Source of the DNA: an uncultured Candidatus Saccharibacteria bacterium
GTDB lineage: Bacteria > Patescibacteriota > Minisyncoccia > Phycocordibacterales > UBA6899
NCBI GenBank assembly: GCA_964515375.1
Contig: CAZERF010000002.1
Location: 93,164 to 157,163, forward strand
Length of the DNA: 64,000 bases
Direction of reading: 5' to 3'
The position numbers and the translations under genes are program-made. Shown piece after piece: positions 27,570 to 48,662 of this stretch (the stretch's first letter is position 1; every line of letters starts with the position of its first letter). The notes beneath the pieces were generated by a model. That model searched no databases. It was not told where the DNA came from and saw only the letters and a list, made by a program, of their open reading frames with translations.

Positions 27570-27643
27570 TGGTGCCTATGGTGTAATGGTTAGCACTGAG
27601 GTTTGTGGAACCTCCAGCCAGGGTTCGAATCCCTGTAGGCACC
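27570..27643 (+). tRNA. tRNA-His (anticodon GTG), with encoded G-1
   Basis: GGTGCCTATGGTGTAATGGTTAGCACTGAGGTTTGTGGAACCTCCAGCCAGGGTTCGAATCCCTGTAGGCACCC. Anticodon loop TTGTGGA. Confidence 0.85.
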
Positions 27644-27722
27644 CCCGACAGAGAGACCCAAGAGGCGACCGAGAAGGGTCGCTTTTTGGTAAAGAAAGTT
27701 CTAGACTCAGTAGGTCAAAAAC

Positions 27723-28703
27723 ATGAATATCGAGGAAAGAAAAATTCTCAAAGCACTCACTGATGATAGGAGGGGGTTACTGTCCCCAGCAGATTTCGTA
27801 AACGGAATTGCGCAACACGATCGGCGGGCAGTAGAAAACCTTGTCACGGGTGGCTATGTCGAGGAGGTACCACAAGATGTTAATGGAGGTCATCGGGGAA
27901 CATATTCTATAAATTTTTATAGAGCAACAGAAAAGGGTCGAAATGTCTTTTCTCCATGGAGACAAAAAGTTTGGTTTAATCTTAAGACGGAAACCTCACT
28001 TTGGGTAGGAATCTCCTCGATCATGATTGGAGTTCTTTCAATACTTATTTCTAGCGCCGTGGCTTTTGGTGTTCCTTGGTATCAAAATGTATCAAATGAA
28101 CAAAAAGAAATTGAGGCAATTTATAAAAATCTCATTACGAATGAGGATATTCTCATATCGAACTCAAATAATGCCAGATTTCTTTTAACTGCAACAAGTG
28201 TCACTGCATTGCCGGAGTCATACCTGGAAGATGAGATCAAAGGTGATATTGGAAAAATACTTCAGGATAAGTTTGGTTTAATTCAATACAGATTTTTCGT
28301 TTATTACTTGCAGCAGATTGAACTTTTCAACTTGGAAATAGAAGAAATGAGGAACGCACTCGTTGTCGGGGGTTCAACATCAACAGCATATCTAAGTGCC
28401 CAAAAGGCGTATCTTTCAACTGTAGACGAAATAAGCAAGGAGGGGATGGATGCAAGGTTTAGTCACATAAGAGATGTTGAATGCCTTACACATTTATTTG
28501 AGCGCAATTTTGAGTATTTATCTATTGATCCGCGCGGCAAAATAGAAAAATGTTCAAATGAATCCCTTAATCGAATTTATTATAATTTTGGCTTTCTCGA
28601 GGCGGCAACACCAAGGTGGATGCTACCAGCATACAGAGACGCGCTAAATGAAAGAAGGGCGGGTTTCGGTGACACAATAATTAACATCGCCGGAGGTTAT
28701 TAG
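27723..28703 (+). CDS. Hypothetical membrane protein with an N-terminal winged-helix-like domain. AT-rich island cargo.
   Basis: ILKALTDDRRGLLSPADFVNGIAQHDRRAVENLVTGGYVEEV (wHTH-like), then the TM helix LWVGISSIMIGVLSILISSAVAFGV, then a ~200-aa C-terminal domain. Confidence 0.55.
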   Translation: MNIEERKILKALTDDRRGLLSPADFVNGIAQHDRRAVENLVTGGYVEEVPQDVNGGHRGTYSINFYRATEKGRNVFSPWRQKVWFNLKTETSLWVGISSIMIGVLSILISSAVAFGVPWYQNVSNEQKEIEAIYKNLITNEDILISNSNNARFLLTATSVTALPESYLEDEIKGDIGKILQDKFGLIQYRFFVYYLQQIELFNLEIEEMRNALVVGGSTSTAYLSAQKAYLSTVDEISKEGMDARFSHIRDVECLTHLFERNFEYLSIDPRGKIEKCSNESLNRIYYNFGFLEAATPRWMLPAYRDALNERRAGFGDTIINIAGGY

Positions 28704-28711
28704 CTACTTTC

Positions 28712-29815
28712 ATGCCTCGCTTACATAAAGTAATTTCATGGCCAAGACGCAAGTTCATTGCTTTCGTCCTCCGAAAAAGAATCGGAAAAAATAAGTGGTC
28801 TGCTCACTTGATATTTGGCTTGCTCAGCATTTTAGATTTACTTGAATTTTTGTATATAAATACACAGGACACGGGAAATTACGACCACTATATTCCAAAA
28901 TTTCTTCTTCGCCGATTTCGAATTTCCGAAAAAGGCGCACACAGTAATTCACTGTTTACCTACACACTTAAATCAAAACTTGTAGAAAGGAAAAGCATCG
29001 ACGACGTTGCGGGGGAAATTGATTTTGACGTCTCAAAAGCTAGCGGCATTCCAAGTGACTTTGTAAACAAAAAAATATTTGCTGAATTTCTTGAGCCGAT
29101 AGCATCAAGAATAATAAAGCATATAAACACTGGAAATAATGATTTAACATATCTTGAGGCTAACACCCTTGCTGTTTATATGGGCCATCAAATCACCCGA
29201 GTGCCAGCATTCAGATCGTTGCTTCTAAAAATTTTCTCGATAGGAATAAGTGATGGGCGGATACTCTATTCTGAATTTGGAGATAAGAAAGCACTCCGCG
29301 AAAAAATCGCCTTCAATTCTATTCTAATTACTTATGATCAGATTTTACGCACCAAACCACCCATTAAAGTCGATGGAGGTAAGCCGCAAGCGATAATGAT
29401 TTCTCTGCTAATTGCGCCTATTATTTCGGAAAAAATATACCGAAATAATAGTATGCATGTTATCGATATTCCTCAGGATAGTGGCAAGGAGTTTGTCATT
29501 TCAGACAACCCAGTAGTATTTATTGATTTCGAAAGAGCGACAGTTCTTCCGTTTGTTCCTTGGTGGGAAATAGGAACCCGCGATTTTTTAATAGCAATGC
29601 CAGTCTCAAGGAACAAGGCAATCATATATAGCAGAGTTAGTAGAAAACCGACAGAAACCGAACAGAACTCAATTGCCGAATTAATAAACTTTGCGCAATA
29701 TGCCTGTTCGAGAAAAGAGGTCTATTCTAACAACGAGAAAACGATATTGCTCCACCTAAATAAATACAAAACAGAGCTCGAAAAATTTCGGTTAATGTTT
29801 AGTTCTGAAGACTGA
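28712..29815 (+). CDS. DUF4238-like protein (candidate single-gene anti-phage / abortive-infection-type protein)
   Basis: The N-terminal motif NYDHYIPKFLLRRF resembles the DUF4238 HYxPQFYLRxF signature. AT-rich. Lies within the island. Confidence 0.5.
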   Translation: MPRLHKVISWPRRKFIAFVLRKRIGKNKWSAHLIFGLLSILDLLEFLYINTQDTGNYDHYIPKFLLRRFRISEKGAHSNSLFTYTLKSKLVERKSIDDVAGEIDFDVSKASGIPSDFVNKKIFAEFLEPIASRIIKHINTGNNDLTYLEANTLAVYMGHQITRVPAFRSLLLKIFSIGISDGRILYSEFGDKKALREKIAFNSILITYDQILRTKPPIKVDGGKPQAIMISLLIAPIISEKIYRNNSMHVIDIPQDSGKEFVISDNPVVFIDFERATVLPFVPWWEIGTRDFLIAMPVSRNKAIIYSRVSRKPTETEQNSIAELINFAQYACSRKEVYSNNEKTILLHLNKYKTELEKFRLMFSSED

Positions 29816-30025
29816 TTTTCTTGTCTTTGAGCACTGTCTTGTTTTTTCATGCACCCAGGAAGCCATCGCTTCTCGAGCGTCATTCCTTTTTTGAGCATGT
29901 ACCCGCCATACGTGTGTACACATTACCAGAGGGGCTTGCAATATATAGATATATGTGTGATTATAGAATCACTTTTATTAACACCGTTTCTTTATTGGAG
30001 GAAGGGAGTAGCATTGAGATTACTT

Positions 30026-32593
30026 ATGGAAACCAAACTTTTTACGACTAAGTTCGTGCGCATATTTTTTATATTAATTAGTGGTGTTTTACTCTCCTCC
30101 CAGACAGCGCTTGCTGCCGTCAGTTATAGCCAAACGGTGACACTCCAGCCCGGATGGAATATCGTTTCAACCCCACGCATTCTTGAGTCGCATAACTTCT
30201 CCATGCCAGAGACGTCTACAAATCTCAGTGTGTTCATGCTGGACGCATCGGATCCAAGTGGGTGGGCACCAATGTCTGGTGAGTTTGCGCCACTCTACGG
30301 ATATTTCATCAATAACAAGACCGCAACATCGCAGACGCTCACCTTTAATTTCAAGGCAAGCACAACCCCGAACGAGCGACTGTTCGATCGGTCATTTGCT
30401 ACTTCCGGCTGGTACTCAATTGGCGTTGCAAATCCCACTTACGCAGATCGCCAAGGTGAGGCGAACGTAGACGAGAACAATCCCTCCCAAGTATTTGATT
30501 CTGTTATTGCTTCGACAGATTTAGTCGTGGACTTTACCGATGCAGACTCGGTATTTAGCCCTGCGAGTGTTGCACTTGCTGATCCTTGGGGAGCTGCGAT
30601 TGCCACTGACGTGAACACCCTTGCTGATATTCGTGACACCAAGGGTTATGCGATCTATATAAATACTTCCGGATCACATTACATTGGATTTCAGAACGAG
30701 AGTGACGATGGTGGCACGGGTTCGGTCCCAACATATACGCCAGGCACACTAAGCATCACCAAGGCAGCAGATTCTCCTTCAGGAAATGTTATCCAGAATG
30801 GCTCAGGGGTAACACTTGGAAAATTCACATTCCAGGCGCAAGGAGAGAGACTGAAGGTTGAAAACCTCAAAGTTGCGCTAACCTCATCCGACACATCTTG
30901 GGGGAGTATTCGCAACGGCGCACTGTTTGCGAATGGTGTACAGGTAGGATCGACGAACAATATTCTTACCGCAACAGGAACGCAGTTCAATCTTGGTAGC
31001 TCCCTCATCATTGATGCTGGTCAAAGTGTCACCATCGAAGTACGCGGTGATATTTATGACAATGATGGCACTAATGATTCTTCTTCCGGAGACACCATAA
31101 AAGTCCAGTTGCTTGCCGGAACATCCAATGTCTATCGACTTACAACACTTGATTATATTTCAAGCGAGAGTAAATCTGCCAACATCGTGACAGTAGCAGA
31201 AGCGACACTTGCCCTTGCGAAATATGCGAGCTATGCAAACCAGACCATCATTGTTCCACAAACCGCATTTAAGATCGGCGAATACCGCCTTACTGCCGGA
31301 GCAGACGAGGGGGTAAATCTCGATACAATCACGCTCGCACTTGGGGGGTCGGCGACAGTTACACACCTCACCAATCTTTACGTGGTGTATGGCTCAAAGA
31401 CCTCGACCGTAAAGGCAACAGGAGCAACATCTCAGCAGTGGTCCATCAATGAGGCACTGTCGGCGAATGGCACGATGAGCATTGCGGTCTATGCAGATAT
31501 GAGCGGAAGCATTTTAAGTGCCTCGACTACGATAACCACACTGACTCTTTCGGGTACCGGACAAGGTTCTGGTAGCCCAGTCACATCGCCCGCTGTTACT
31601 GGACAAACGATCACTGCTGGCGAAGGCGTGCTCACTGGAACAGTGGATTCCTCGACCCCCATTTCTGCACTCCTTGTGGGCAACTCAATGCCAAAGGTAG
31701 CATCATTTAAATTTACCGCATCAAATGATTCTTTCACGATTACCGAACTCGCAGTAACAGCGAAAAGCGTAGCTGATGCGAGTGCAGTTACTGAGCTAGT
31801 GTTCAAAGACGGAGCGACAGAGATCAGACGTGTTTCTTACAATGGAGCTGTTGCCACTGCCACTGGTCTTAGTGTCGTGGCACAGTTCAATGCGACTAAG
31901 GTTATTGATGTGTATGCGAATCTCGGTTCTATCGGCACAGGATTTGTGGACACAGGTGCCAATGTGGGAATTACACTCACGAGTTTCAAGGCGCAAAATT
32001 CAAACGGCGTAAACACGACTCACTCAGTTAGTCTTGCAAGCAACGATTTCTACGCACACAAGACAAAACCAACACTCACAAACGTTGCGCTTCCGACCTC
32101 CGTACTATCTTCGGGCACAGTGACGATTGCAAAGGTAAACGTTACAGCAGACGCAGGAGGTACACTCGCGTGGAGGAAAATAGTATGGAATGTCGCCACA
32201 TCTTCTCCTGGAACGTTTACCGTCGGTTCTCCTGCAGTCTACGATGCAGCAAATGAGTCAACACCGCTTGCCAATGTCACCACGTCGATTGATCCGAGCA
32301 CTGGTGTTATTACCGTTACCTCAACAGTCGACCAAGAGGTGAGTGGTTCAAAGACCTATGTGCTCAAGGCAACTATTGGCGGATCGGTTCAGACTGGTGC
32401 ATCTGTTTCTACGAGCATTGCAGGAGGAGTCACATCACACAGTGTGCCAACCACGTATGCAGGGGCAGCATCGAACTCGTCCTTTGTGTGGTCCGATGAA
32501 TCAGTTGTGGGACACAGTGATACAACCACTGACTGGATGGATAACTATCTCGTGAAAAATCTTCCAACAGATTCACAGACACTCACAAAATAA
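30026..32593 (+). CDS. Large secreted Thr/Ser/Gly-rich beta-repeat surface protein (adhesin or S-layer-like)
   Basis: Signal peptide METKLFTTKFVRIFFILISGVLLSSQTALAAV. 855 aa of low-complexity repeats. The start was moved to the ATG at 30026. Confidence 0.65.
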   Translation: METKLFTTKFVRIFFILISGVLLSSQTALAAVSYSQTVTLQPGWNIVSTPRILESHNFSMPETSTNLSVFMLDASDPSGWAPMSGEFAPLYGYFINNKTATSQTLTFNFKASTTPNERLFDRSFATSGWYSIGVANPTYADRQGEANVDENNPSQVFDSVIASTDLVVDFTDADSVFSPASVALADPWGAAIATDVNTLADIRDTKGYAIYINTSGSHYIGFQNESDDGGTGSVPTYTPGTLSITKAADSPSGNVIQNGSGVTLGKFTFQAQGERLKVENLKVALTSSDTSWGSIRNGALFANGVQVGSTNNILTATGTQFNLGSSLIIDAGQSVTIEVRGDIYDNDGTNDSSSGDTIKVQLLAGTSNVYRLTTLDYISSESKSANIVTVAEATLALAKYASYANQTIIVPQTAFKIGEYRLTAGADEGVNLDTITLALGGSATVTHLTNLYVVYGSKTSTVKATGATSQQWSINEALSANGTMSIAVYADMSGSILSASTTITTLTLSGTGQGSGSPVTSPAVTGQTITAGEGVLTGTVDSSTPISALLVGNSMPKVASFKFTASNDSFTITELAVTAKSVADASAVTELVFKDGATEIRRVSYNGAVATATGLSVVAQFNATKVIDVYANLGSIGTGFVDTGANVGITLTSFKAQNSNGVNTTHSVSLASNDFYAHKTKPTLTNVALPTSVLSSGTVTIAKVNVTADAGGTLAWRKIVWNVATSSPGTFTVGSPAVYDAANESTPLANVTTSIDPSTGVITVTSTVDQEVSGSKTYVLKATIGGSVQTGASVSTSIAGGVTSHSVPTTYAGAASNSSFVWSDESVVGHSDTTTDWMDNYLVKNLPTDSQTLTK

Positions 32594-32594
32594 T

Positions 32595-33590
32595 ATGAAA
32601 AAACTCATCCTCTCTATACTTCTCATCCTTCCGCTCAGTGCATTTGCCGCACTGCCAGCATTTCCGATGTCGTTTTATGGGACTGCAACGATTAATGGCA
32701 CCCCTGCACCAGTTGGGACAATCGTTCGTGCATATTACGGAACGACACTTGCGGGGCAGGTGAGTATGAGCGAGGTCGGCATCTATGGTTACGATAATCC
32801 CACCAAACAACAGCTTCTTATCGGCGAGGGTGCCACAGCGATCCGTTTTACTGTTCAATCAAGCACTATAAATAGTGGGACTGAAACTGAAGGAACAGCA
32901 TCGCAATCACACCCCTCGTTTGTATCAGGCGATGTAGTCTCAAAAAATCTCACCTTTACATGGAGTGCTCCTGTTCCAGCACCTACGCCTGCACCATCAG
33001 GTGGCGGGGGTGGAGGTGGTGGCGGAGGGGGAGGAGGGGGCGGTGGAGGTGGATCCGCAACACTGTACGGCTGTATGGATAAAAAAGCGGTAAATTATAG
33101 CCCCATTGCTACTGTCGATAATAAAGCATGCGTTTACCCATCTGGGGTGACTGCAAGTACGACAGCACCGACACCTGCTCCAGTCACGCAGACAAGCACA
33201 GTAAAACCCGTCGGAGAGGTTGCGGGTGCATCGACCTTTATGTTCACTCGTAATCTCAATGTGGGTTCAACGGGAAACGACGTAACCGAATTACAGAAGC
33301 GACTAACTGCGGAAGGATACTATGTTGGTCCAATTACTGGGTACTTCGGTCCGCTCACTGGTGCTGGGGTGAAGAAGTATCAATCAGCACACGGACTAGA
33401 GCAGGTGGGGAACGTTGGGCCAAAGACTCGATCAATACTGAATCAGGGTGGGAGTGTGCTTGGAGCAAGCACTGTATCAACATCGGTCACGGTATTAACA
33501 CCGGAGGCTCGTGCAACGCTCATCAAGCAATTGCTCGCAATGATCATTGAGCTTCAGAAGCAACTTGCAGCACTCAAGGCGCAACAATAG
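32595..33590 (+). CDS. Secreted protein with an 18-residue poly-Gly linker and a C-terminal peptidoglycan-binding domain (PG_binding_1)
   Basis: Signal peptide MKKLILSILLILPLSAFA. The stretch FTRNLNVGSTGNDVTELQKRLTAEGYYVGPITGYFGPLTGAGVKKYQ is a canonical PGBD1. Start lies 2 nt after the previous stop. Confidence 0.7.
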   Translation: MKKLILSILLILPLSAFAALPAFPMSFYGTATINGTPAPVGTIVRAYYGTTLAGQVSMSEVGIYGYDNPTKQQLLIGEGATAIRFTVQSSTINSGTETEGTASQSHPSFVSGDVVSKNLTFTWSAPVPAPTPAPSGGGGGGGGGGGGGGGGGGSATLYGCMDKKAVNYSPIATVDNKACVYPSGVTASTTAPTPAPVTQTSTVKPVGEVAGASTFMFTRNLNVGSTGNDVTELQKRLTAEGYYVGPITGYFGPLTGAGVKKYQSAHGLEQVGNVGPKTRSILNQGGSVLGASTVSTSVTVLTPEARATLIKQLLAMIIELQKQLAALKAQQ

Positions 33591-33605
33591 AGGAGTGGTT
33601 TGCCA

Positions 33606-34925: not shown

Positions 34926-35065
34926 TGAATGACGCTACCCTCCCAGGGAGTCCAGGAATGGCAGATAGTACGCAATAAGGGTAAATATAGTCAAAAATAT
35001 CAATCCTTGCGTAAGGATTGACAATCCTTACATAGGAGAATAGTATTTACGCATAAACAAAAACC

Positions 35066-35284
35066 ATGAAACAAGAAGAAAAGCGCGAAAGATTTAAGAG
35101 GCTCGGGACGCAACGTACAAACGCGGTGCTCCAGAAGATCAAAGTGCTCAGCAATTGTGCGAATCGGAGCGCGTATGAGTATACGGAAGAGGAGGTGAAT
35201 AAGATTTTTTCAGAGATTGAACGGCGGGTACGCGAGGCGAAGGCGAAATTCCATTTCCCGAAGACGAAAGAATTTAAACTATAA
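35066..35284 (+). CDS. Small basic hypothetical protein, first gene of the GHKL/Type III operon
   Basis: 72 aa, Lys/Arg/Glu-rich helical protein. Lies 4 nt upstream of the GHKL ATPase gene. Confidence 0.45.
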   Translation: MKQEEKRERFKRLGTQRTNAVLQKIKVLSNCANRSAYEYTEEEVNKIFSEIERRVREAKAKFHFPKTKEFKL

Positions 35285-35288
35285 AAAT

Positions 35289-37043
35289 ATGTCCATCCAT
35301 CCCAAAATTTCCCCACGCATCATCAACTCCATTGCGACACTCTATAACGATGTGAACCGCATCTTCATGGAGTACATTGATAATGCAATTGATAGCGCAG
35401 ACCAGAATTGGTTTGATCGTCCCCGCAATGCATACTCCCGTCCTGTTGAGGTCACTGTCCATATCAAGGGGCACAGTCATAAAGACGCAGAAGTCGTCAT
35501 TACTGACAACTGCTTTGGCATCACAAATTTCACCAAAGTCGTAGAGAGTATCGGGGACTCAGACAAGAAAGCACAAGGATTCACTAATGGACAATTTGGT
35601 TTTGGTATCTATTCCTTTATGGCGGCGTGCTCGGATCTTGAGCTCACTTCAAAAGAAGAGGGAAAGAGCGCACTTCGTCTCGTGCTTAACCGTGAACAGT
35701 TTGATAAGAAGTCAGTTGAGGAGGTTAGCATCCCCAGCCCCAAAGAAACCAAGCATTTTCCTCATGATTCGGGCACCCAAATCCGGCTTCATGGGTTTGA
35801 TAAGGACGCATGGAAAAATGTTGTTGCCAAAACGCTCAAGGAGGAGATAGAAAAACACTTTGAGCTCATTCTTCGTCGCGGGAATCTCACGGTGAAAATT
35901 ATTGATGAAACGTCGGAGCAAGAAATACTCTGTGAAGCCTTTGATTATGACAATTTTGATGGGGAGGTATACGAGGACCACATTGAACACTTTGATCTTG
36001 AGAGCGGTCGTCGCCACAAGGTGACGGAAAAGTGGGAATTGAAAGACCCGGTGCATATATTCCTGAAAATGACGAAGGGTCAGGTACTCAACAAGCCCCC
36101 AGTGTTCGTCTCAAAAGGAAGACGAATTTGTGAGATCAAGGATGTGAAGTCATTCAAGTCAGCACACAAGAGCGACATCTGGGGACACGCAAATGTCACG
36201 GGGTACATTGACCTCAAGGATCTGCTCGGGCCAACAATTGCACGCAACGACTTCAAGAGCGACAAAAACTCACGCGCTCTTTTTGCGGAACTTGTAGAGC
36301 TCGAGGATCTGATTCTTGATTATGTGAGACGTGCAAATGAGCATACTGACGAAAAACATTATCAGCAGCTTGAAGACGCGCTCAATCGCGCCCTCTCAAA
36401 GCTTGCGCGCGTTGATGCAATGAATTTCCGTACCTCTTTTCTCAAGGGTGGCGAGAAGAATCTATCTGGTGGATCTGCCGGGACGGAGTATGTAGAGGGC
36501 GTTGGGGCGCATGATTTTGGTGATGGTGAAATTGAGAATCCAGGAGAAGGAGTTGGGGAGGACGAGGGTGAGGGACTCGGGACTCACGAGGGTGGCGACG
36601 ATCTTCCGGGCGGGGCAACCTCAGGCGAACAAGCAAAGAACGAAGAACTTTTTGCTGACAGTGAATTCAAGGGCAAAGAGCGCAAGAAGAGTGGTTTCAA
36701 TATTCACATTTCTGATGCAGAGCCCCAGGTGGATGCCGAGACGGGGAAGCAACTGCGCTCACTCCTTTCGGGTGAACAAATTGTGATCTTTAAGAAGCAC
36801 GCAGATTTCCAGGCTCGCTTGAGCCACACTCGCCAAGGTGGATCAAAGATCACCGACAGACTCCTTGCGTACATTGCGGGGGAGATCACCGTGCACTACA
36901 AAGATGAGTTCTACAACAAGCGCCAGAATGGTCAGCCAGAATACAGCAAGAATATGTTCGTGAGCATGGCAGAGTTCATTTATCAACTTGAGGATGCCCT
37001 TTCCGCGCTTTCCGGGAAGAACCTCTCAGAACTCTCCTCATGA
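35289..37043 (+). CDS. GHKL-superfamily ATPase, MORC/MutL-like (HATPase_c_3-like), with an acidic low-complexity C-terminal region
   Basis: N-terminal Bergerat-fold motifs: YIDNAIDSA (N-box), DNCFGI (G1-like) and GQFGFGIYSF (G2). 584 aa. Overlaps the next gene by ATGA. Confidence 0.65.
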   Translation: MSIHPKISPRIINSIATLYNDVNRIFMEYIDNAIDSADQNWFDRPRNAYSRPVEVTVHIKGHSHKDAEVVITDNCFGITNFTKVVESIGDSDKKAQGFTNGQFGFGIYSFMAACSDLELTSKEEGKSALRLVLNREQFDKKSVEEVSIPSPKETKHFPHDSGTQIRLHGFDKDAWKNVVAKTLKEEIEKHFELILRRGNLTVKIIDETSEQEILCEAFDYDNFDGEVYEDHIEHFDLESGRRHKVTEKWELKDPVHIFLKMTKGQVLNKPPVFVSKGRRICEIKDVKSFKSAHKSDIWGHANVTGYIDLKDLLGPTIARNDFKSDKNSRALFAELVELEDLILDYVRRANEHTDEKHYQQLEDALNRALSKLARVDAMNFRTSFLKGGEKNLSGGSAGTEYVEGVGAHDFGDGEIENPGEGVGEDEGEGLGTHEGGDDLPGGATSGEQAKNEELFADSEFKGKERKKSGFNIHISDAEPQVDAETGKQLRSLLSGEQIVIFKKHADFQARLSHTRQGGSKITDRLLAYIAGEITVHYKDEFYNKRQNGQPEYSKNMFVSMAEFIYQLEDALSALSGKNLSELSS

Positions 37044-37906
37044 GCACTCAAGTCCTCATAGAAGCCATCACGCCTTCATATAATGCCTACCAGAAGGGTC
37101 AGGGTACCCTCACGCCAACCGAGCTCATTATGCTCATGTGGGACATTGGCGCAGCGATTGAGAGGCATGTGAATGAACACAAAATCCCCCCACATGCGCT
37201 GTATCGCCAGGTATATGGCAAGAGTGAGGGTACGCAAAACATCAAACAGCGCAGTTATATTGCGCGTGAGTTTTTAAGTAGAAGCTATCGCGTGAAGCGC
37301 ATATTCAAGACGAAGAGTGAGATCAAAAAGCAACTTCCGAAACTTTCCGCGATCAATCACTTTCGTGAGGCGATGCCATTTTTTGATAATCCAAAGTATG
37401 TACTTGGGGCAAAAGAAAAGCAGGAGCTCCTTCGTGTGATCAATGGTCCGCTCTCCAACAAAGAGAAAGAGAACTACATCCAGAAACTTCAATCAAAGAA
37501 AATCGGGATCAAGAATCCGCGTACACAAAATCTGAATCTCCTTGATGAGGATAAGTTGGTGTTTGTGAAGCTCTATAACGATGTGTTCAACGCACTGAAG
37601 CTTGAGAACTATGACAAGGCAAAGAAAGCCCTCTCTCTCCCGTCACCAAAATTTCTTGCGATACTTTCACTCAACTGTGGAGCTATTTCTGCCGATGGGC
37701 TCATGATGGAAAAATTTGAACCGCCGAAGGATCTCAGTGCGAAGTGGAAGGCGTTTGTCGGGGTGATACAAAAGCTCATCAAAGATGAAAACCCGAAAGA
37801 ACGTAGACGCTTCCGGAGACTCATCCCACCAGAGCGCATGATCCGACTCTCCGAAATGCTCTACGCATTGACCACTCCGGAGAAATATAAGAGCTTCAAG
37901 ATATAA
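37040..37906 (+). CDS. Hypothetical all-alpha protein co-transcribed between the GHKL ATPase and Mod
   Basis: 288 aa with no recognisable domain. Translationally coupled upstream; 16-nt gap to mod. Confidence 0.5.
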   Translation: MSTQVLIEAITPSYNAYQKGQGTLTPTELIMLMWDIGAAIERHVNEHKIPPHALYRQVYGKSEGTQNIKQRSYIAREFLSRSYRVKRIFKTKSEIKKQLPKLSAINHFREAMPFFDNPKYVLGAKEKQELLRVINGPLSNKEKENYIQKLQSKKIGIKNPRTQNLNLLDEDKLVFVKLYNDVFNALKLENYDKAKKALSLPSPKFLAILSLNCGAISADGLMMEKFEPPKDLSAKWKAFVGVIQKLIKDENPKERRRFRRLIPPERMIRLSEMLYALTTPEKYKSFKI

Positions 37907-37922
37907 TCACAAGATAAACAGC

Positions 37923-39818
37923 ATGAACAAATTTGACCCCACATCACACAACATCACGGAGGAGCAGAGAGCCCAACTGAAGGAATCGTTTCCAGAAGCA
38001 TTTACTGAGCAGGGAATAGATTTTGAGTGTCTCAAGACACTTCTCGGGGAAACGGTTGAAACAGGACCCGAGCGCTATTCCTTCACCTGGCCAGGGAAGA
38101 CTGAGGCGATTCGTGCCGCACAAGCATCAAGTATGGGCACGCTCGTTCCAGACAAAGCATCGTCAGTGGATTGGGACACCACAGAGAATCTGTATCTTGA
38201 GGGAGACAACTTGGAGATTTTGAAGCTCCTTCAGAAGTCCTACGCCGGAAAAGTGAAGATGATCTATATTGACCCTCCATACAACACTGGAAAGGACTTT
38301 GTGTACCCCGACAAGTATGGTGAGGGCCTGAAGACATACCTGGAATATACGGGGCAAATAGATGGCGAGGGAAAGAAGCTGACGACAAACACCGAAACAG
38401 ACGGTCGCTACCACTCAAAGTGGCTTAACATGATGTACCCACGACTGATGCTCGCACGGAATCTGCTCAAGGATGATGGGGTGATCTTCGTCTCAATTGA
38501 TGATCATGAGGTCCACAATCTGCGGAAGATTATGGACGAGGTTTTTGGAGCAGAGAATTTTATAGCAGTATTTACATGGGTGCGCAAAAAGAAAGGTTCA
38601 TTCTTGTCTGACAAAACAAGAAAAATGACGGAATATATAGTCTGCTACCAAAAAAATATTTCTGAAAAATTGGAGTTTTATGGAGAGGATGCATACGCGG
38701 ACAAATGGCAGCCCATCGTGAAGCGTACAAATTCAGAAAAAGAACTATCAATCCCAGAAAATGTTGTTGAAACAACACTGGAAGATGGAGAATATGAGGG
38801 TGGATTCCGAGGCAACGAAGGAACCGGTATAAATTTTCAAAACAACTTTAAAGTTGAAGATGGTCTTGTAAAAAACAGGATTATCGTACGTGGAAACTTT
38901 GTTTGGACACAAGATTTTTTAGATCGCGAACTTGTTAGTGGCACCAGGATTTCTCTCTCAACAAAATTTGGTTTTAATGTCTTGAGGCACGATCAAGAAG
39001 AAAAAACAAAAACACCGTCAACCCTAATTAATAGTGACAATGATGTTGGAACGAATGAGGATGCCACCGCTGAGGTAATCAGCCTATTTGATGGAAAGAA
39101 AGTTTTTGATTATCCAAAACCCGTATCACTACTTTCTTATTTAGTGAAAATGGTTACTTCCGAAAATGATATTGTATTAGATTTCTTTTCCGGATCAGGA
39201 ACCACCGCACATGCGCTGATGGAAATAAATGCTAAAGATGGGGGAGGGAAAAAATTTATATTAACCCAGCTTCAGGAAACAGTACCTAACGATAGTGAAG
39301 CGCAAAAATCTGGATTCCAAAATATCTCAGAACTTGGACGCGAGAGAATCAAGCGCGCCGGAAAGAAAATTCGCGAGGAACTTGCCGAGAATATCACCAC
39401 AAGAGAAACCCCACTGGACACAGGATTTAAGGTATTTCGCCTTGCTCCAAGTACGTTCAATGTTTGGGATGTGAAAGGAGAAGATGATCTTCAAGTGAAA
39501 CTCGTTGACGCCACTTCCTTGATCAAGGGGGATGCAAAAGAGGAGGACATTCTCACTGAGCTCATTTTGAAGAGTGGCTACGGACTCACAGAGAAAGTTG
39601 AGCAGATCACACTCTCCGAGAAGAAGTTTTATTCGGTCGCAGGTGGGAAGCTCATTGTTTCGCTTGAGTCAGGACTTACGCTAGAGCATGTACGGGCAAT
39701 TGCCGAGAAGAAACCGGAACAGTTTGTTGCGCAGGAGCATGGCTTTGCAAGCAACGATGTGTTGACCAACACTGCGCAGATTATGAAAGATAAGGGAATT
39801 GATTTCCGCGTACTCTAG
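37923..39818 (+). CDS. mod: Type III restriction-modification methyltransferase (Mod), N6-adenine, beta class
   Basis: IYIDPPYNTG (motif IV, DPPY), then a central variable TRD, then VLDFFSGSGTTAHA (motif I FxGxG). 631 aa. Confidence 0.85.
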   Translation: MNKFDPTSHNITEEQRAQLKESFPEAFTEQGIDFECLKTLLGETVETGPERYSFTWPGKTEAIRAAQASSMGTLVPDKASSVDWDTTENLYLEGDNLEILKLLQKSYAGKVKMIYIDPPYNTGKDFVYPDKYGEGLKTYLEYTGQIDGEGKKLTTNTETDGRYHSKWLNMMYPRLMLARNLLKDDGVIFVSIDDHEVHNLRKIMDEVFGAENFIAVFTWVRKKKGSFLSDKTRKMTEYIVCYQKNISEKLEFYGEDAYADKWQPIVKRTNSEKELSIPENVVETTLEDGEYEGGFRGNEGTGINFQNNFKVEDGLVKNRIIVRGNFVWTQDFLDRELVSGTRISLSTKFGFNVLRHDQEEKTKTPSTLINSDNDVGTNEDATAEVISLFDGKKVFDYPKPVSLLSYLVKMVTSENDIVLDFFSGSGTTAHALMEINAKDGGGKKFILTQLQETVPNDSEAQKSGFQNISELGRERIKRAGKKIREELAENITTRETPLDTGFKVFRLAPSTFNVWDVKGEDDLQVKLVDATSLIKGDAKEEDILTELILKSGYGLTEKVEQITLSEKKFYSVAGGKLIVSLESGLTLEHVRAIAEKKPEQFVAQEHGFASNDVLTNTAQIMKDKGIDFRVL

Positions 39819-39820
39819 TC

Positions 39821-42766
39821 ATGAAGCTGCAATTTGATCCAAACCAGGAGTACCAGATGGATGCGGTTCGTGCATCGGTAGATCTCTTTGAGGGGCTACC
39901 GATTGAGGAGGACAGTTTTTCCGTTTCTGTGGCAAAAGAAAATTTGCCAGGGATGTTTGAGGCGCAAACTGAAGATGTGCTCGCATTTGGAAACCACACC
40001 ACTCTCCCCGACGATGAATTATTGAAGAATCTTCAGTCTGTGCAAGAACGAAATGGGATTGAGGTCACTGAGACACTTCAGAAAACAATGGGGTATCCGC
40101 AATTCTCTGTTGAGATGGAAACTGGGACAGGAAAGACCTATGTGTATCTACGCACGATCCACGAGCTCCATGCGAAGTATGGATACAGCAAGTTTGTGAT
40201 CGTGGTTCCCGGTAAGGCAATTCGCGAGGGAACACTCAAGAATTTGGAGATCACGGGAGATCACTTCCAGACTCTCTATGGAAACACGCCATTTTCGTAT
40301 GCAGTGTATGACTCAAAAAACATGAGTACTGTGCGTGACTTTGCTGTATCGCGCGGGCTCTCAATTTTGATCATCAACATTGAGGCATTTCGTAAGGATT
40401 TTGATGATGAGAATATGGATCCCGAGAGAGGTGTGCTTTTTCATCGTCCGAGCGAGAAGCTCTCCGGTCGTTCACCGCGCGAATTCTTGCAAGCAGTCCA
40501 TCCGATTGTGATTATTGATGAACCGCAGAGTGTAGACAATACTCCGATAGCAAAGAAGTCCATCTCACTCCTTAATCCTTTATTCACCCTCCGCTATTCT
40601 GCAACGCACCGTAATCCGTACAATCTCATTTATCGCCTAGATCCCATTCGTGCGTATGAGATGCGACTCGTGAAGAAGGTCGCTGTGGCCGAAGTTCTTG
40701 GATCACAAGAATCGGGGGCAGGTGCGTATATAAAACTCATTTCAGTTACCAATGATGGAGGAATTAAGGCACAGATTGAGATTGATGAGGATAACGAAAG
40801 CGGTCCGAAGCGAAAGAAGATCAAAGTGAAGGGTGGTGACGACTTGTTTGTGAAATCCAAACATAGAGATGCTTATCAGAATGGTTTTCTGGTCGGCGAG
40901 ATTGGCGCCGAACAAGGGAAGGAGTTTATTTCTTTTGAACCAAGTGGAATCACGCTCCATATTGGCGAGGCACTCGGTGGTGACGATGAGGCTATTAAGC
41001 GCCTCCAGATCAGGAAAACGATTGAAGAACATTTTGAAAAGGAACTAGAGCTTGAAGGGCGCGGAATCAAAGTGCTCTCGCTTTTCTTTCTGGATCGTGT
41101 AGCAAACTATCGTCTCTATCCCGAAGAAGGGGAAGCTGAGAAGGGTCAGTACGCCAAGTGGTTTGAGGAAGAGTATGAGCGTCTGCGTCAGACTGAGAAA
41201 TATAAGACACTGAAGCAGCCACCAGTTGAAAAGGTGCATGATGGTTATTTTGCTGAAGACAAGAGCGGCAAACTCAAAGATTCTCGCGGTGAGGGCGATA
41301 CCGCCGACGATGAATCTGCTTACAACAAGATCATGAAAGAGAAGGAGCGCCTGCTCTCTTTTGAGGAGCCCCTCAAGTTCATTTTCTCTCACTCAGCATT
41401 GCGTGAAGGATGGGACAATCCGAATGTGTTTCAGATTTGCACACTCAATCAGGCACATAACGCGATCAAAAAGCGCCAGGAAATTGGGCGTGGGATGCGC
41501 CTCCCCGTGGATCAGAGTGGGGTCCGCGTATTTGATGAGTCAATTAACAAACTCGTTGTTGTTGCGAATGAGAGTTATAAGGATTTTGCACGAAAACTCC
41601 AGACTGAATATGAAGAAGATTGTGGGGTAACATTCGGAAAGATTACTGAGAAGACATTTGTGGGACTCACATATGAAAAAGATGGCGCAGAGGTGTTGCT
41701 AAATGAAGCAACGATTGCGACAATCATCCAAACACTTCGGACATTAGGCATGATTGATGAGAATGGCAAACTCACGGATGCTTTTGATCCTACACAAGTA
41801 GGATTCACCCTGGGGCTCATGGGAGACTTGAAGGAGATTGAACTGGAGATCATTGATCGGATCAAAGAATACCAACTTGAGCGCCATATTGTGCGTCACC
41901 AAGCGAAAGGGCGCGTTAAGATCAACAAAGAAGTATTCTTGAGCCCCGATTTTGCTGAGTTGTGGAATCGTATTAAGGCAAGAACTACCTATGCGGTGAA
42001 GTTTTCCGACGACCTACTGATAACGACAATTTCGGATCGCCTGCGTGCAATGCCCGCGATCACGCTCCCTAAGGTGCAGTATGTGAAGGCTGAGTTCTCG
42101 CTGGATGATCGTGGGGTGACAACACGCGAGGTGCGAAATAGAACCGAGGAGGTGAAGCAGGACAATGCGCAGCTTCCGGACATCCTCTCGTATCTCCAAC
42201 GAGCAACGCATCTTCGGAGGAAGACGCTCGTAGATGTACTTACGCGCTCGGGGAGGCTCGCTGATTTCGCGAAAAACCCTCAAAAATTCATGGATGTGGT
42301 GGCCGAGACAATCCGCGCTGAGCTTCGCCGTCTTTCTGTTGAGGGTATTCAGTATGAGCGTGTGGCAGGCGAGGAGTATGAAATGACCCTTTTTGAGGAT
42401 CACGAGTTTTCTGCATATTTGAGCGATCTTCTCCCGTCTAAGAAGTCGGTGTACGAACGCGTTTCCTATGACTCTGATATTGAGCGTCGCTTCGCCTTGG
42501 AGTTAGAGAAGAAGGATCAGGTCAAACTCTATGTCAAACTTCCATCATGGTTTACCGTTGAGACTCCGGTGGGCAAATACAATCCCGATTGGGCGATAGT
42601 GAAGCACGGAGACGAGAAGGTGTACTTGGTCCGAGAGACGAAAGGTTCACTTGAAGCAAGCGCGCTCCGAATTTCAGAAGATCAGAAGATCAAGTGCGGC
42701 AAGAAGCACTTCGCCTCCATCGGCATGGACAACTTTGAGGTGGTAAAAGATGCGAGTGAGATATAG
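39821..42766 (+). CDS. res: Type III restriction enzyme Res subunit (SF2 helicase + C-terminal PD-(D/E)xK nuclease)
   Basis: METGTGKTYVYLRTI (Walker A), VIIDEPQ (motif II), QxxGRGxR-like region HNAIKKRQEIGRGMRL. 981 aa. Starts 3 nt after the mod stop. Confidence 0.85.
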   Translation: MKLQFDPNQEYQMDAVRASVDLFEGLPIEEDSFSVSVAKENLPGMFEAQTEDVLAFGNHTTLPDDELLKNLQSVQERNGIEVTETLQKTMGYPQFSVEMETGTGKTYVYLRTIHELHAKYGYSKFVIVVPGKAIREGTLKNLEITGDHFQTLYGNTPFSYAVYDSKNMSTVRDFAVSRGLSILIINIEAFRKDFDDENMDPERGVLFHRPSEKLSGRSPREFLQAVHPIVIIDEPQSVDNTPIAKKSISLLNPLFTLRYSATHRNPYNLIYRLDPIRAYEMRLVKKVAVAEVLGSQESGAGAYIKLISVTNDGGIKAQIEIDEDNESGPKRKKIKVKGGDDLFVKSKHRDAYQNGFLVGEIGAEQGKEFISFEPSGITLHIGEALGGDDEAIKRLQIRKTIEEHFEKELELEGRGIKVLSLFFLDRVANYRLYPEEGEAEKGQYAKWFEEEYERLRQTEKYKTLKQPPVEKVHDGYFAEDKSGKLKDSRGEGDTADDESAYNKIMKEKERLLSFEEPLKFIFSHSALREGWDNPNVFQICTLNQAHNAIKKRQEIGRGMRLPVDQSGVRVFDESINKLVVVANESYKDFARKLQTEYEEDCGVTFGKITEKTFVGLTYEKDGAEVLLNEATIATIIQTLRTLGMIDENGKLTDAFDPTQVGFTLGLMGDLKEIELEIIDRIKEYQLERHIVRHQAKGRVKINKEVFLSPDFAELWNRIKARTTYAVKFSDDLLITTISDRLRAMPAITLPKVQYVKAEFSLDDRGVTTREVRNRTEEVKQDNAQLPDILSYLQRATHLRRKTLVDVLTRSGRLADFAKNPQKFMDVVAETIRAELRRLSVEGIQYERVAGEEYEMTLFEDHEFSAYLSDLLPSKKSVYERVSYDSDIERRFALELEKKDQVKLYVKLPSWFTVETPVGKYNPDWAIVKHGDEKVYLVRETKGSLEASALRISEDQKIKCGKKHFASIGMDNFEVVKDASEI

Positions 42767-42782
42767 CACAACAACAAACACC

Positions 42783-43316
42783 CTACGTGGGGTGTTTGTT
42801 GTTCTCGCCACTCTTTTGTTTCGCCTCTTCACATTTTCTGATTTCCTCTTCCAACTTAAATACACCTGCGAGGCCGGCGTTGTGGAGCGCTCTTGATATC
42901 TCCTCCAACATATAGTCTGGAAGACGATTCTCCAGCGGGTTACTCTCATCAGTGTATCTCCATCGAGAATCGGCATAGGTGCCATGGTGATGCTTGAGCC
43001 AGAAGACAATTGCAGTCATTGCGCCATCTTTGATTTTCTTAATGAGTTGAGACTCGGCCATATCGTTGACGAGAGTTCGTCCTTCGCTGATCGCGACCGC
43101 GCTTTCCTCGGCGAAGTGCTTATCCGAATTCATCCACTTGTAGTATGTTGCACGGGCGACCCCAGCTCGCTCGCAAGCAAGCTGGATGATCGAACTCTTG
43201 CGCAGGTGCTCAAGTACTTCCTGCTTCATTTGTGCGGTGCGCTTCTCTGTCGCACCACTTGGTTGGGACACTACTTTCTTCGGTCCCCGCTTTGGTGTGT
43301 GCGGTGACCGGGTCAT
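42783..43316 (-). CDS. HTH DNA-binding protein (terminase-small-subunit / transposase-OrfA-like HTH)
   Basis: IIQLACERAGVARATYYKWMNSDKHFAE is a typical phage/IS HTH_23-type motif. Confidence 0.55.
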   Translation of the reverse strand: MTRSPHTPKRGPKKVVSQPSGATEKRTAQMKQEVLEHLRKSSIIQLACERAGVARATYYKWMNSDKHFAEESAVAISEGRTLVNDMAESQLIKKIKDGAMTAIVFWLKHHHGTYADSRWRYTDESNPLENRLPDYMLEEISRALHNAGLAGVFKLEEEIRKCEEAKQKSGENNKHPT

Positions 43317-43325
43317 ACGAGCGAA

Positions 43326-44666
43326 TTAGTTGATCTTCTTTGCCCGCACCCCGGCTGTTTTCTCCCACCGACGCAGAATCACCTCGGCATAGACGGGGGA
43401 CTTTTCCATGAGAAAGCACCGTCGTCCAAGCTTGAGTGAGGCGATGAGGGTACTTCCGCTTCCGCCAAAGGGCTCAAGAACGAGGTCTCCGCGTTTGGTG
43501 AGCACCTTGATGTATGGGATGAGGATCTCGGTCGGCTTTGTCCCAAAGATGACCCCTTGTCCTGATGACTTCTCGTCCGCGGCGATATACTCAACGAAGT
43601 CGGTCGGACAGACCTTCTTTCCTTTCTCGTACCCCTCCCACTGGGGTTTACCACTTGTCGCATAGAGGGCATTCTCGTATTCATTCTGGAAGAGACCTTC
43701 TTCTTCCTCGAGGTTGAGTCCGACATTTCCGATTGACCCCACCAATGCAATATCTTGCTTATTGAAGAACTTATACTTTGAACTAAAGCCCTGCATTCTA
43801 TTAGGGAGATGCCAAGTGATGGTATTGCGGTACTTCCAATGCTTCTCGAGCTCGTTCCATATAGTGCGGAGATTCTTTGGGTGCTCGAAGATCATGATTG
43901 AGAAATCCTCTTTCTGCACCTTCGCGACATTTGCCATCCATTTCTCGGTAAAGTCTGGTGGAAGGACGTCGGTCTCGAGGTATCGACGGTTCTTCTTCGC
44001 CCCGAATCCAGTTGTGACACCATCCTTCTGCTTCGTTTTGCCCTTTAAATAATCAAGGATATACGGAGGATCCGTCATGGTCATGTCCACTCGCTCATCG
44101 CCCATGAGGGTGAGCATGTTCGCTTCGATGGTCGAGTCCCCACACATGAGCCGGGAGCCGTTGCATTCATAGATGTCACCCTTCTGCACTTTCACTTCTG
44201 TAATCGAGAGTTTCTCGAGTTCTTTCTTGAGATCGAATTGTTCCGGCGCAGAATCAACATCGAAGATGCTATCGAGGTCTTCCGTGGTGAAGCCAATGTC
44301 TTTCAAGAAATCCTCTCCGAAATCTGCGAGCATCTTGAAGTCGAACTCCCCGAGATTCTTATTCAGTCGCACATTAAGCTCCTTCTCCTTCGCGAGGTCT
44401 GCAATCGTGATGTACACCACGGGGACTTGTTCAACGCCAAGCTCGGTCGCTGCCTTGAGTCGGAAGTGACCGCCAATGACGATGTTCTCTCGTCCGGGCG
44501 CATCGTTTGCCACGAGCGGATCTACAAAACCGAAACGCCTGATGCTCTCCTTGAGTGCGCTCATCTGCTCCGCATTCCACGTGCGCGGGTTGTATTCGCT
44601 TGGCTTGAGGCTGGTAATCGATACATAGCTGATAGATAACTTGTTCATAACAAAATAGCTAACCAT
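43326..44666 (-). CDS. ParB-like nuclease domain fused to a DNA methyltransferase (phage-type orphan N6/N4 MTase)
   Basis: N-terminal ParBc region ISITSLKPSEYNPRTWNAEQMSALKESIRRFGFVDPLV. MTase motifs DPPY (TMTDPPYILDY) and EPFGGSGSTLIA. Confidence 0.75.
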   Translation of the reverse strand: MVSYFVMNKLSISYVSITSLKPSEYNPRTWNAEQMSALKESIRRFGFVDPLVANDAPGRENIVIGGHFRLKAATELGVEQVPVVYITIADLAKEKELNVRLNKNLGEFDFKMLADFGEDFLKDIGFTTEDLDSIFDVDSAPEQFDLKKELEKLSITEVKVQKGDIYECNGSRLMCGDSTIEANMLTLMGDERVDMTMTDPPYILDYLKGKTKQKDGVTTGFGAKKNRRYLETDVLPPDFTEKWMANVAKVQKEDFSIMIFEHPKNLRTIWNELEKHWKYRNTITWHLPNRMQGFSSKYKFFNKQDIALVGSIGNVGLNLEEEEGLFQNEYENALYATSGKPQWEGYEKGKKVCPTDFVEYIAADEKSSGQGVIFGTKPTEILIPYIKVLTKRGDLVLEPFGGSGSTLIASLKLGRRCFLMEKSPVYAEVILRRWEKTAGVRAKKIN

Positions 44667-44940
44667 TAATCAATTTGGTTTCGATTTGGGGTTGAAGCGC
44701 AAACGCTATTTGGTGAGAAACAAAAAACTCCGCGACCGCGAATGACATTCTGTGCGAGCAATGCATTCGTTACTACTTGGGAGTTCTACTTAGTGAAAAA
44801 CCTATTTGGGATACTGTTTGGTTATCTTTATGGTATGCCTTTGACGCTTTTTCGCAATGGATAGTTATCCACTATTACGCTATTCGCACCGTTGTCGGTT
44901 GGAGTATGTGGAACAAGTATGTTGGCGGTACAATATAGTG

Positions 44941-45492
44941 ATGGAAGATTTACAAGCAGAATATAGAACTGCTTACCAAAACGGTGAGTATGAAAAGTGT
45001 CTCGAGCTAACAAACGTGGTACTTACCGACGATCCTATTAATTTTGACGCACTGGCTCAGAAGGGTGCGACATTAATGCGTTTAAATAGGAACAAAGATG
45101 CAATCGAAGTATTTTCCGAATCCATCAAGGTGAACAATACTGCTTACCATGTTTGGGTATTCAGGGGAGATTGTCATTACGCGTTGGCTGATTATGAAAA
45201 AGCCTTCAGTGATTATTGGGTTTCCTTACAACTTGAACCTGACAATGGTGCAGCAGTTGATAGATGTGCTCGCTGTTTGTTTCATATGGGGGACACAAAA
45301 GAAGCATTGAAATATATAAGGAAGGCAGCCGGAATAGCAGAGTCTTCAGAGCCAATGCTGGTAATGATTCACATGTTGAAACTAATGGGATTTCCAAGTT
45401 ACGCAAAGGAAGTCTATCGAATGGGTCTTAAGAAATTTCCTGAAGAAAGCGAGAGGTTCCGTGTATTTCTAGACAGAGAAATAGAAAAATAG
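44941..45492 (+). CDS. TPR-repeat protein
   Basis: Three or four TPR-like helical repeats (AYQNGEYEKCLE..., ALADYEKAFSDY...). The start was moved to the ATG at 44941. Confidence 0.5.
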   Translation: MEDLQAEYRTAYQNGEYEKCLELTNVVLTDDPINFDALAQKGATLMRLNRNKDAIEVFSESIKVNNTAYHVWVFRGDCHYALADYEKAFSDYWVSLQLEPDNGAAVDRCARCLFHMGDTKEALKYIRKAAGIAESSEPMLVMIHMLKLMGFPSYAKEVYRMGLKKFPEESERFRVFLDREIEK

Positions 45493-45823
45493 GCACAATG
45501 CGACGGTGTGTCTACTTTGTCTACTCAATTTGGTTCGAGTCCGAGTAGGGGGGGCTGATGAAGAGTCGAACTTTTTTATGAAACCCAGGTGGTGCTTGTG
45601 GGGTCTCATGAAGTGCGAGAATCGTCAGAATGAGGAGGCGGAGGCAAGAGAGGGGGTGATGATGGGGAAGTGATCTTTTGACCCCGACCGGATAGCCTCC
45701 TGTCTACTTGAAGAAGGAGCTCAAAGAACCTTGTCAGGGCCTCGCCCCCAAAGGTCGTGACTGGATTGGCACCCAACATCACAAAAGCAGAGCGTAAGCT
45801 CTGCTTTTGTTTTGATGTTGGAG

Positions 45824-45844
45824 TGCCTACAGGGATTCGAAAGA
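45824..45844 (-). repeat. Inverted copy of the tRNA-His 3'-end core (inverted att-core fragment)
   Basis: Reverse complement ctttcgaatccctgtaggcac has 19 nt matching tRNA-His 27622-27640. It sits 214 bp before attR. Confidence 0.7.
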
Positions 45845-46057
45845 CGGAGCCGGTACACAAGACGAGCGAAGCGAGTACTTGTCGGCGAGTCGGGGTCGAC
45901 AGCACTTATGAGCGAAGCGAATTAGTGACTGGTGACCGAATCCCCCTTGCATGTTTCCGTCAGGGATTCGAAGACCGCAGTGATGTTTCGTCAGCAGACG
46001 AAACCACGAGGGGCGGGCTGCGAGCTTGTCGCGCGGGGGCGAGACAAGACTTGTTGC

Positions 46058-46076
46058 CGAATCCCTGTAGGCACCC
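46058..46076 (+). repeat. attR: 19-bp direct repeat of the tRNA-His 3' end
   Basis: cgaatccctgtaggcaccc is identical to 27625-27643. Confidence 0.8.
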
Positions 46077-46137
46077 AAAATTGCACATATTTCTTAATAT
46101 GGTATACTTAAAAAATCACAATAAACCATATTAGGAT

Positions 46138-47079: not shown

Positions 47080-47344
47080 TTTCTCCAAATCCCCCTTGAT
47101 CTGTGGCCAATCAAGGGTTCTGAATACGTCCCGATGGTGGCCCAGCGAGCTTCTTGAGAAAACCCCAAAAGGGGTTTTCCCTTTTTCGCTGGGTGCCTAA
47201 GCAAGGTAACTGTTTGCCTTTTAGGGATGGAGCACAAAGACAATACCTTCCTTCTTGAGACACCACTCCTGCGGGTGAAAAATGAATAAATGCAGAAATT
47301 GGTCGCCCTTTTGTGGCGCGAACTTTTTATGGGATAGTTGAAGT

Positions 47345-47896: not shown

Positions 47897-48108
47897 CCGG
47901 ATTGGTTCGAATCCCCTTACTCCACCCGATGCAGAGACCCAAGAAGTGACCTGGAAGAGTTGTTTTTTTTGGTAAGAAAATTTCTAAACCCCAGACTGGT
48001 TCTGTTCTGTGAATGCTATCTTTCCATCATTTACAAACGTGGCGAGGCACATACGCACACGCGAAGCAGCGAATGTGTTCTTTAATTTGGAACTGGTATA
48101 CTTAAAAG

Positions 48109-48585: not shown

Positions 48586-48662
48586 TTATCGGGCACCGTT
48601 TCAGCCTCGTCCTGGCAGGTACCCCTGATGCAGAGACCTAAGAGGCAACCCGGAAGAGCTGA

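Follow-up and report, generated by a model that had tools for sequence, protein, structure and literature searches.

Two adjacent AT-rich genes of the window, that is the whole stretch of 64,000 nucleotides analyzed here (contig CAZERF010000002.1, positions 93,164 to 157,163), lie at the left end of an integrative element of about 18.4 kb inserted in the 3' end of a tRNA-His gene. The explanation of the whole that we favor, and consider probable, is that the first of them, gene 1, is a backbone gene of this tRNA-His serine-recombinase element and that the second, gene 2, is a DUF4238 cargo gene that acts alone. A preliminary description of this DNA had proposed a sensor/effector pair, which is not supported, since co-occurrence of the two genes is confined to one element lineage. 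Both genes were identified, the element is bordered by attachment (att) repeats, the slot that holds gene 2 varies between related elements, and the two genes lack conserved pairing. The features on which this rests are the following.

27571..27646, + strand: tRNA-His (GTG), target of the integration, with the attL core in its 3' 19 nt, 27626-27644 (ARAGORN; Rfam tRNA, 62.1 bits; exact repeat search)
27723..28703, + strand: gene 1, 326 aa, with a winged helix-turn-helix (wHTH; residues 3-74), one transmembrane (TM) helix (93-118) and a C-terminal domain that is all-alpha and has no known relative; proposed backbone gene
28712..29815, + strand: gene 2, 367 aa, DUF4238 (PF14022), of an N-terminally extended subfamily; proposed variable cargo
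46058..46076, + strand: attR core, which repeats 19 nt of the tRNA-His 3' end exactly and in direct orientation, CGAATCCCTGTAGGCACCC (repeat search)

The 19-mer CGAATCCCTGTAGGCACCC occurs in exactly two direct copies, at 27626-27644 and 46058-46076, with no chance match in 100 shuffles, and these copies delimit the element (about 27645-46076). The locus thus has the direct repeats of the tRNA 3' end on both sides, and the recombinase between them, that characterize a tRNA-targeting integrative element. Gene 1 begins 76 nt after the end of the tRNA, in agreement with the position at the left end of an island given in the preliminary description. The two open reading frames (ORFs) and their 8-nt spacing were verified on the + strand: gene 1 stops with TAG at 28701-28703 and the ATG of gene 2 is at 28712. 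That both are far more AT-rich than the host was likewise confirmed, with GC contents of 0.396 (gene 1) and 0.377 (gene 2) compared with 0.465 for the whole element and 0.52-0.55 for host DNA, and a GC content at third codon positions (GC3) of 0.34 and 0.36 compared with 0.71-0.77 in the adjacent host genes PrkA and SpoVR. They are the most AT-rich genes within the element. Because both have conserved homologues, they are real genes and not chance ORFs.

To survey the subfamily of gene 2, one genome per GTDB species was scanned, which gave 16 loci, and all gene-1 family members were compared with these loci by tblastn. A gene-1 relative was found in none of the 16 (loci are designated below by L numbers). 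Reciprocally, DUF4238 is absent beside gene-1 relatives in 11 contexts (L002-4, L005, L006, L007, L025, L026, L027, L028, L030, L031, L032/33). The two genes stand together only in the window, L001/L029, L024 and L034/35, and these loci are copies of one element, with 88-89% DNA identity and DUF4238 proteins that are 94-95% identical. As every co-occurrence comes from this one lineage, at 88-95% identity, they are not independent, and a conserved two-gene system is not supported by the comparison of loci. Thus, of the two arms of the refutation formulated in the preliminary description, the DUF4238 profile match was positive (see below) and the conservation of the partner beside DUF4238 homologues failed.

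Genes 1 and 2 could nevertheless be, at least in this lineage, the membrane wHTH sensor and the DUF4238 effector of an abortive-infection system. The 8-nt same-strand spacing is retained in all the pair-bearing loci named above, the two genes share the lowest GC contents of the element, and the N-terminal helix of gene 2 (residues 31-49), which is marginally hydrophobic with a Kyte-Doolittle (KD) value of 1.83, could bring gene 2 to the membrane of gene 1. We judge this reading improbable in view of the counts on either side (0/16 and 11 contexts) and of the single lineage behind every co-occurrence; in addition L030 has the same backbone with another gene at this place, the validated DUF4238 protein works as a single gene, and the N-terminal extension seen in gene 2 is also kept where gene 1 is missing from the genome. 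Genes of about 300-340 aa situated tightly 5' of DUF4238 in L008, L010, L017, L019 and L021 were considered as remote gene-1 analogues and rejected: one turned out to be a second DUF4238, one is DUF5655, and the rest are unrelated unknowns.

In the window, two further genes follow gene 2 before the recombinase is reached.

29849..32593, + strand: 914-aa secreted-looking, surface-like protein, co-cargo; N-terminal hydrophobic segment, no Pfam domain; 92% amino acid identity in L001
32595..33590, + strand: 331-aa protein with a poly-Gly linker (run of 18 Gly) and PG_binding_1 (Pfam E 2.7e-16), co-cargo; 95% amino acid identity in L001
33606..34925, - strand: large serine recombinase (Resolvase, Recombinase and Zn_ribbon_recom; Pfam), right border of the slot

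Across related elements the same space was found in these states.

Window and L001: DUF4238, the 914-aa protein and the 331-aa PG_binding_1 protein
L030: a single 278-aa gene, unrelated; chromosomal site as in the window, recombinase 92.6% identical
L002: empty; the recombinase gene, which is broken there, lies 3 nt after gene 1, tail to tail
L006: empty; recombinase 27 nt further on; the gene-1 relative there has a different C-terminal domain

Since the content differs among L002, L006, L030 and the window with L001, gene 1 and the recombinase enclose a variable cargo slot, and DUF4238 is swappable cargo in it. Gene 1 would then be a backbone gene; it is in every case the first one inside attL or attP, and it is placed tail to tail with the recombinase when the slot is empty. 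The recombinase itself is 92.6% identical at the amino acid level in L030, 91% in L001 and 54% in L006. The gene order of L030 is cobalamin adenosyltransferase, tRNA-His, gene-1 homologue, 278-aa ORF, recombinase and HATPase. The genes for the 914-aa and 331-aa proteins are absent from L030, from L002 and from every other DUF4238 locus. In L002, sequences matching about 45.76-45.95 kb of the window are followed directly by sequences matching 27625-27714 and then by the gene-1 homologue; this junction looks attP-like and would fit a related element that is unintegrated or differently placed. The 278-aa gene of L030 (6989-7825) encodes an RNNSVH (Rx4H, HEPN-like) motif, matches neither Pfam nor PADLOC and is a candidate cargo or defence gene.

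This arrangement resembles the P2/P4 defence hotspots in its conserved flanks (gene 1 and the recombinase), in the alternative unrelated cargo of sister elements at the same chromosomal site, and in the defence genes that lie elsewhere in the element. It differs from them in the large serine recombinase, the ParB-methylase, the small-terminase-like gene and the tRNA-His target, and only three slot states have been seen here so far. The slot of this tRNA-His integrative element would be a hotspot not described before, with DUF4238 as cargo that can be exchanged, and it could be mined for more cargo, the 278-aa gene of L030 being an example.

The assignment of gene 2 to DUF4238, together with the N-terminal motif noticed in the preliminary description, was borne out by the profile search. 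Gene 2 matches PF14022 with an E value of 6e-22 and 78.8 bits (curated gathering cut-off 27 bits), residues 57-342 aligning with profile positions 1-280 of 281, and the segment NYDHYIPKFLLRRF is the first motif, at the start of the domain. An alignment of 25 subfamily members has 32 invariant positions. The signature residues H59/Y60/P62, Q160/R163/P165 and S264/D265/N266/P267 are invariant in the 25 sequences, and in gene 2 they align with HHFLSQCYLKGF, AIRTPAQR and FITSDNPV of the validated E. coli protein. The latter is encoded by a DUF4238 gene of a P2-prophage hotspot of E. coli, which by itself gives protection from T7 (Rousset et al. 2022, PMC9122126; pFR101, WP_001515549; sequence taken from the supplement). 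The earlier statement that DUF4238 is catalogued among candidate anti-phage genes is correct. When the gene-2 profile was aligned with this protein by hhalign, an E value of 3e-5 was obtained over 271 columns with 21% identity, the HxxP, RxP and SDNPV motifs being aligned. The PADLOC DUF4238 model PDLC03000 recognizes the validated protein (2.5e-217). As homology to that protein over the whole domain holds despite the miss by PADLOC, gene 2 is, judged from these alignments, a true but distant member of the DUF4238 family.

Compared with the known system (Rst_DUF4238, PADLOC 'DUF4238-Pers'), gene 2 has the same PF14022 over the whole domain with aligned motifs (H-x-x-P...L..F, R-x-P, F-x-x-SDNPV), and it likewise has no conserved partner and lies between backbone genes, in a slot of an integrated mobile element where the cargo varies. 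The differences are its low identity and its escape from the PADLOC model, the origin of its relatives, which are mostly metagenome-assembled genomes (MAGs) of the Candidate Phyla Radiation (CPR)/Patescibacteria with none on phage records, a defence role that is putative, and an N-terminal extension that the E. coli protein lacks. This extension of about 55 residues, a basic stretch and the marginally hydrophobic helix, precedes the Pfam domain; its conservation in the subfamily speaks for the ATG at 28712 as the start. The closest relatives of gene 2 are about 50% identical, and the great majority of them are in CPR/Patescibacteria MAGs (Portnoybacteria, Nomurabacteria, Paceibacterota, Azambacteria, Saccharibacteria and Falkowbacteria); outside CPR there are one Gammaproteobacteria MAG and one Chloroherpetonaceae MAG. 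The narrow PADLOC model for DUF4238 thus fails to detect an entire subfamily, one that CPR bacteria commonly have. The AlphaFold (AF2) model of gene 2 has a predicted local distance difference test score (pLDDT) of 88.3 and a predicted TM-score (pTM) of 0.87. It has no meaningful Foldseek match in the PDB (best NurA, E 0.037, TM 0.15), and the family profile has no match among PDB sequences. The invariant polar set H59, D116, E128, E149, Q160/R163, S264-D265-N266, D272 and N326/Q329 suggests an enzyme.

We consider gene 2 most likely to be a stand-alone candidate defence gene that would act against phages by itself, as does the single-gene DUF4238 of E. coli P2 prophages, because of the validated single-gene homologue, the lack of a conserved partner and the frequent restriction-modification (RM) and defence neighbours. 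In the 16 loci no neighbour of the subfamily is conserved, which on genomic grounds is what characterizes a single-gene system. The gene directly 5' of the subfamily member differs from locus to locus, being a second DUF4238 paralogue, DUF5655, a divergent N6_N4 methylase or an unrelated unknown, and the frequent RM or defence neighbours in CPR genomes include an AlwI restriction endonuclease with a D12 methyltransferase, several N6_N4 methyltransferases and a UvrD-like helicase. A defence role is further indicated by the location of gene 2 in the variable slot of a defence-laden element adjoining a second defence islet (SoFic-like, PDC-S41). In this way a candidate new two-gene defence system is struck off and is replaced by a divergent member of a validated single-gene family.

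Two subfamily loci contain further arrangements. In L019 (4982-7026, Paceibacterota MAG) tandem DUF4238 paralogues lie beside the AlwI endonuclease and D12 methylase, first a canonical 322-aa DUF4238 (PADLOC model, 5e-20) and then the extended form of the window type, which has no PADLOC match. In L011 (4034-5896, - strand, Azambacteria MAG) a 620-aa fusion of LexA DNA-binding, Peptidase_S24 and N6_N4 methylase lies beside a DUF4238 gene in divergent orientation.

Gene 2 might merely share the fold of the E. coli defence protein and serve the element or CPR-type cells in some other way, for example as a toxin/addiction module or as an envelope-linked enzyme working with the two downstream secreted proteins. 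Such a role would fit the distance to the validated protein and the PADLOC miss, the homologues found beside housekeeping genes, the hydrophobic N-terminal helix, and the company in which gene 2 travels in the window, namely two secreted-looking or peptidoglycan-binding proteins. However, the 914-aa and 331-aa genes are beside none of the 16 other subfamily loci, RM genes are recurrent neighbours of the subfamily, the slot is variable and belongs to a defence-laden mobile element, and in L019 the gene-2-type form stands in tandem with a canonical DUF4238 that matches the PADLOC model. We therefore regard a non-defence role as unlikely.

Several points weigh against gene 2 as stand-alone defence cargo of a tRNA-His serine-recombinase element. 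Gene 2 is only 21% identical to the validated defence protein, and neither gene 2 nor its CPR homologues match PDLC03000 at E<=1. A tblastn search of gene 2 against 50,697 phage records gave no match, and IMG/VR scans for the gene-1 and gene-2 families gave none either; for gene 2 this absence is a further point of the same kind. Several CPR homologues of gene 2 adjoin the housekeeping genes MnmA and RsgA. The defence role of the gene-2 subfamily is inferred. The tight 8-nt junction is kept wherever the pair occurs, and functional coupling within this one lineage is possible. The promoter and terminator scan gave nothing above shuffled expectation, with no promoter recognized 5' of gene 1 or gene 2, and both the DNA binding and the membrane topology of gene 1 are predictions. 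The recombinase was assigned to the att sites from its position only, and serine recombinases need no long identical att cores.

The architecture of gene 1 given in the preliminary description, a wHTH, one TM helix and an uncharacterised C-terminal domain, agrees with the AlphaFold model (pLDDT 85.5), and no relative of the C-terminal domain was found. The model has an H-H-H-beta-beta winged helix (3-74), a long helix (79-149) that includes the TM segment (93-118, KD 2.24), and an all-alpha C-terminal domain. The charges flanking the TM segment are +3/-1 on the N side and +1/-3 on the C side, and the only two cysteines, 254 and 277, are both invariant and lie in the C-terminal domain. The protein is thus predicted to be N-in/C-out, with an external domain that may be disulfide-bonded. 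Foldseek against the PDB and BFVD matched the winged helix alone, to PadR/MarR/TFIIE and small phage wHTH regulators (probability about 1, TM-score up to 0.66). Nothing significant was found in Pfam, NCBIfam, PHROGs or PADLOC, and profile and structure searches gave no family annotation or solved homologue for the C-terminal domain. Weak matches to ZorB and MotB (E 0.017 and 0.44) cover the TM helix region only and were dismissed as compositional.

Gene 1 is most likely a membrane-tethered winged-helix regulator with an extracytoplasmic sensor-like domain, and it may supply transcription for the cargo downstream of it. The 8-nt spacing suggests that genes 1 and 2 are co-transcribed. The overall layout of gene 1, a predicted cytoplasmic N-terminal wHTH, a single TM helix and a predicted external domain, would be that of the membrane one-component regulators ToxR, CadC and TcpP. 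It differs from ToxR/CadC in that its wHTH resembles the PadR/MarR/phage type and not the OmpR type (no Trans_reg_C match), in that its C-terminal domain is without known relative, and in that its DNA binding and sensing are predicted only. An exhaustive HMMER search of 1.84 billion representatives gave 104 proteins of the family, which is therefore very rare, and modular: about 80 have the wHTH and TM module only (many are stand-alone proteins of about 110 aa), about 23 have the TM and C-terminal domain, and 3-4 have both. The wHTH part of gene 1 (27723-27925) is mosaic among element variants, the 89% nucleotide identity between the window and L001 beginning at 27926, and in P0003 and P0005 the recognition-helix region differs from that of gene 1. 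This exchange is reminiscent of immunity-type determinants.

It is also possible, though rather less than likely, that the function of interest lies in gene 1, as a membrane-anchored protein for superinfection exclusion, immunity or excision control that works independently of the cargo. It is always att-proximal; in L002, L006 and L030 it stands next to the recombinase, and RepSA-type Rep genes are close to it in L002 and L027. Element variants have exchanged its wHTH region, as would be expected of an immunity determinant, and the wHTH-TM modules form about 80 clusters of stand-alone or differently fused proteins. On the other side, the relatives in L005, L007, L026 and L028 have ordinary chromosomal genes around them and no markers of a mobile element, the C-terminal domain lacks an annotated or solved counterpart, and any such activity is hypothetical. 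That gene 1 could be a host gene disrupted at the integration site was also considered and rejected because of its position between the att repeats, its AT-richness and its transfer along with the element.

Between the tRNA and gene 1, a hairpin with a GC-rich stem of 6 bp (GCGACC/GGTCGC, 6-nt loop) and TTTTT behind it was seen by eye at 27664-27687, directly 3' of tRNA-His and about 35 nt 5' of the gene-1 ATG. It was not listed by the terminator scan, and the equivalent spacers of L001 and L002 are without it.

When the window was compared with L001, the element DNA was 89% identical and the flanking host genes 67-70%, and because of this difference the element is considered mobile between diverged hosts. 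The host flanks encode PrkA, DUF444 (YeaH) and SpoVR as well as the Hcp of a type VI secretion system (T6SS), with GC3 above 0.7, and the nearest relatives of the genes of the element are in CPR/Patescibacteria MAGs. This suggests cross-lineage transfer of the element, and a CPR-like element in a host that does not look like CPR is a hint of gene flow between episymbionts and other bacteria. The least ordinary aspects of the locus are the PADLOC-invisible subfamily, the wHTH-TM protein, which is modular and an orphan, and the presence of an element of CPR-like affinities in a host with PrkA/YeaH/SpoVR and T6SS Hcp. A joint reading would combine them: the extended CPR-type DUF4238 as a membrane-associated class of anti-phage effector unseen by current defence finders, gene 1 as a membrane-tethered wHTH 'slot regulator' that responds to a signal from the envelope by turning on any cargo gene placed downstream, and the module as having moved from Patescibacteria-like organisms to an unrelated T6SS-bearing host on the tRNA-His serine-recombinase element. 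Taken as a whole, this is speculative and we give it little credence.

The rest of the element (35217..45492) and its right end contain the following features.

35217..37906: 608-aa HATPase_c_3 protein overlapping a 288-aa ORF, directly 5' of the type III RM genes; neither matches PADLOC
37923-39818 and 39821-42766: type III RM, Mod and Res respectively
42783-43316, - strand: small-terminase-like HTH (helix-turn-helix) protein
43326-44666, - strand: ParB-methylase
44857-45492: TPR protein
45821..45839, - strand: inverted copy of the tRNA-His 3' end with 1 mismatch, forming a closing stem with the attR core (repeat search)

The HATPase_c_3 protein has a 57% identical counterpart in L030, and together with the 288-aa ORF it may represent an accessory module or a defence module of its own. 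Inside attR, a structured non-coding stretch of about 260 nt (45815-46080) is closed by the inverted copy at 45821-45839 and the direct one at 46058-46076. CAGGGATTCGAA-type motifs recur within it, its predicted fold has -125.6 kcal/mol (z = -6.65 compared with shuffled sequences), it is 80% conserved in L002, and no Rfam family matches it. It could be a recombinase binding architecture or a structured RNA.

Directly after attR lies a second AT-rich islet (46077-50800), with these genes.

46138-47079: SoFic-like Fic protein
47345-47896: NUDIX
48109-48585: 158-aa unknown
48663-50654: PDC-S41 / Schlafen-group-3 helicase (PADLOC 1e-286)

Defence genes are plentiful both in the element and in the island next to it (type III RM, the SoFic-like protein and PDC-S41), and the second islet has the appearance of tandem island accretion at the same tRNA.

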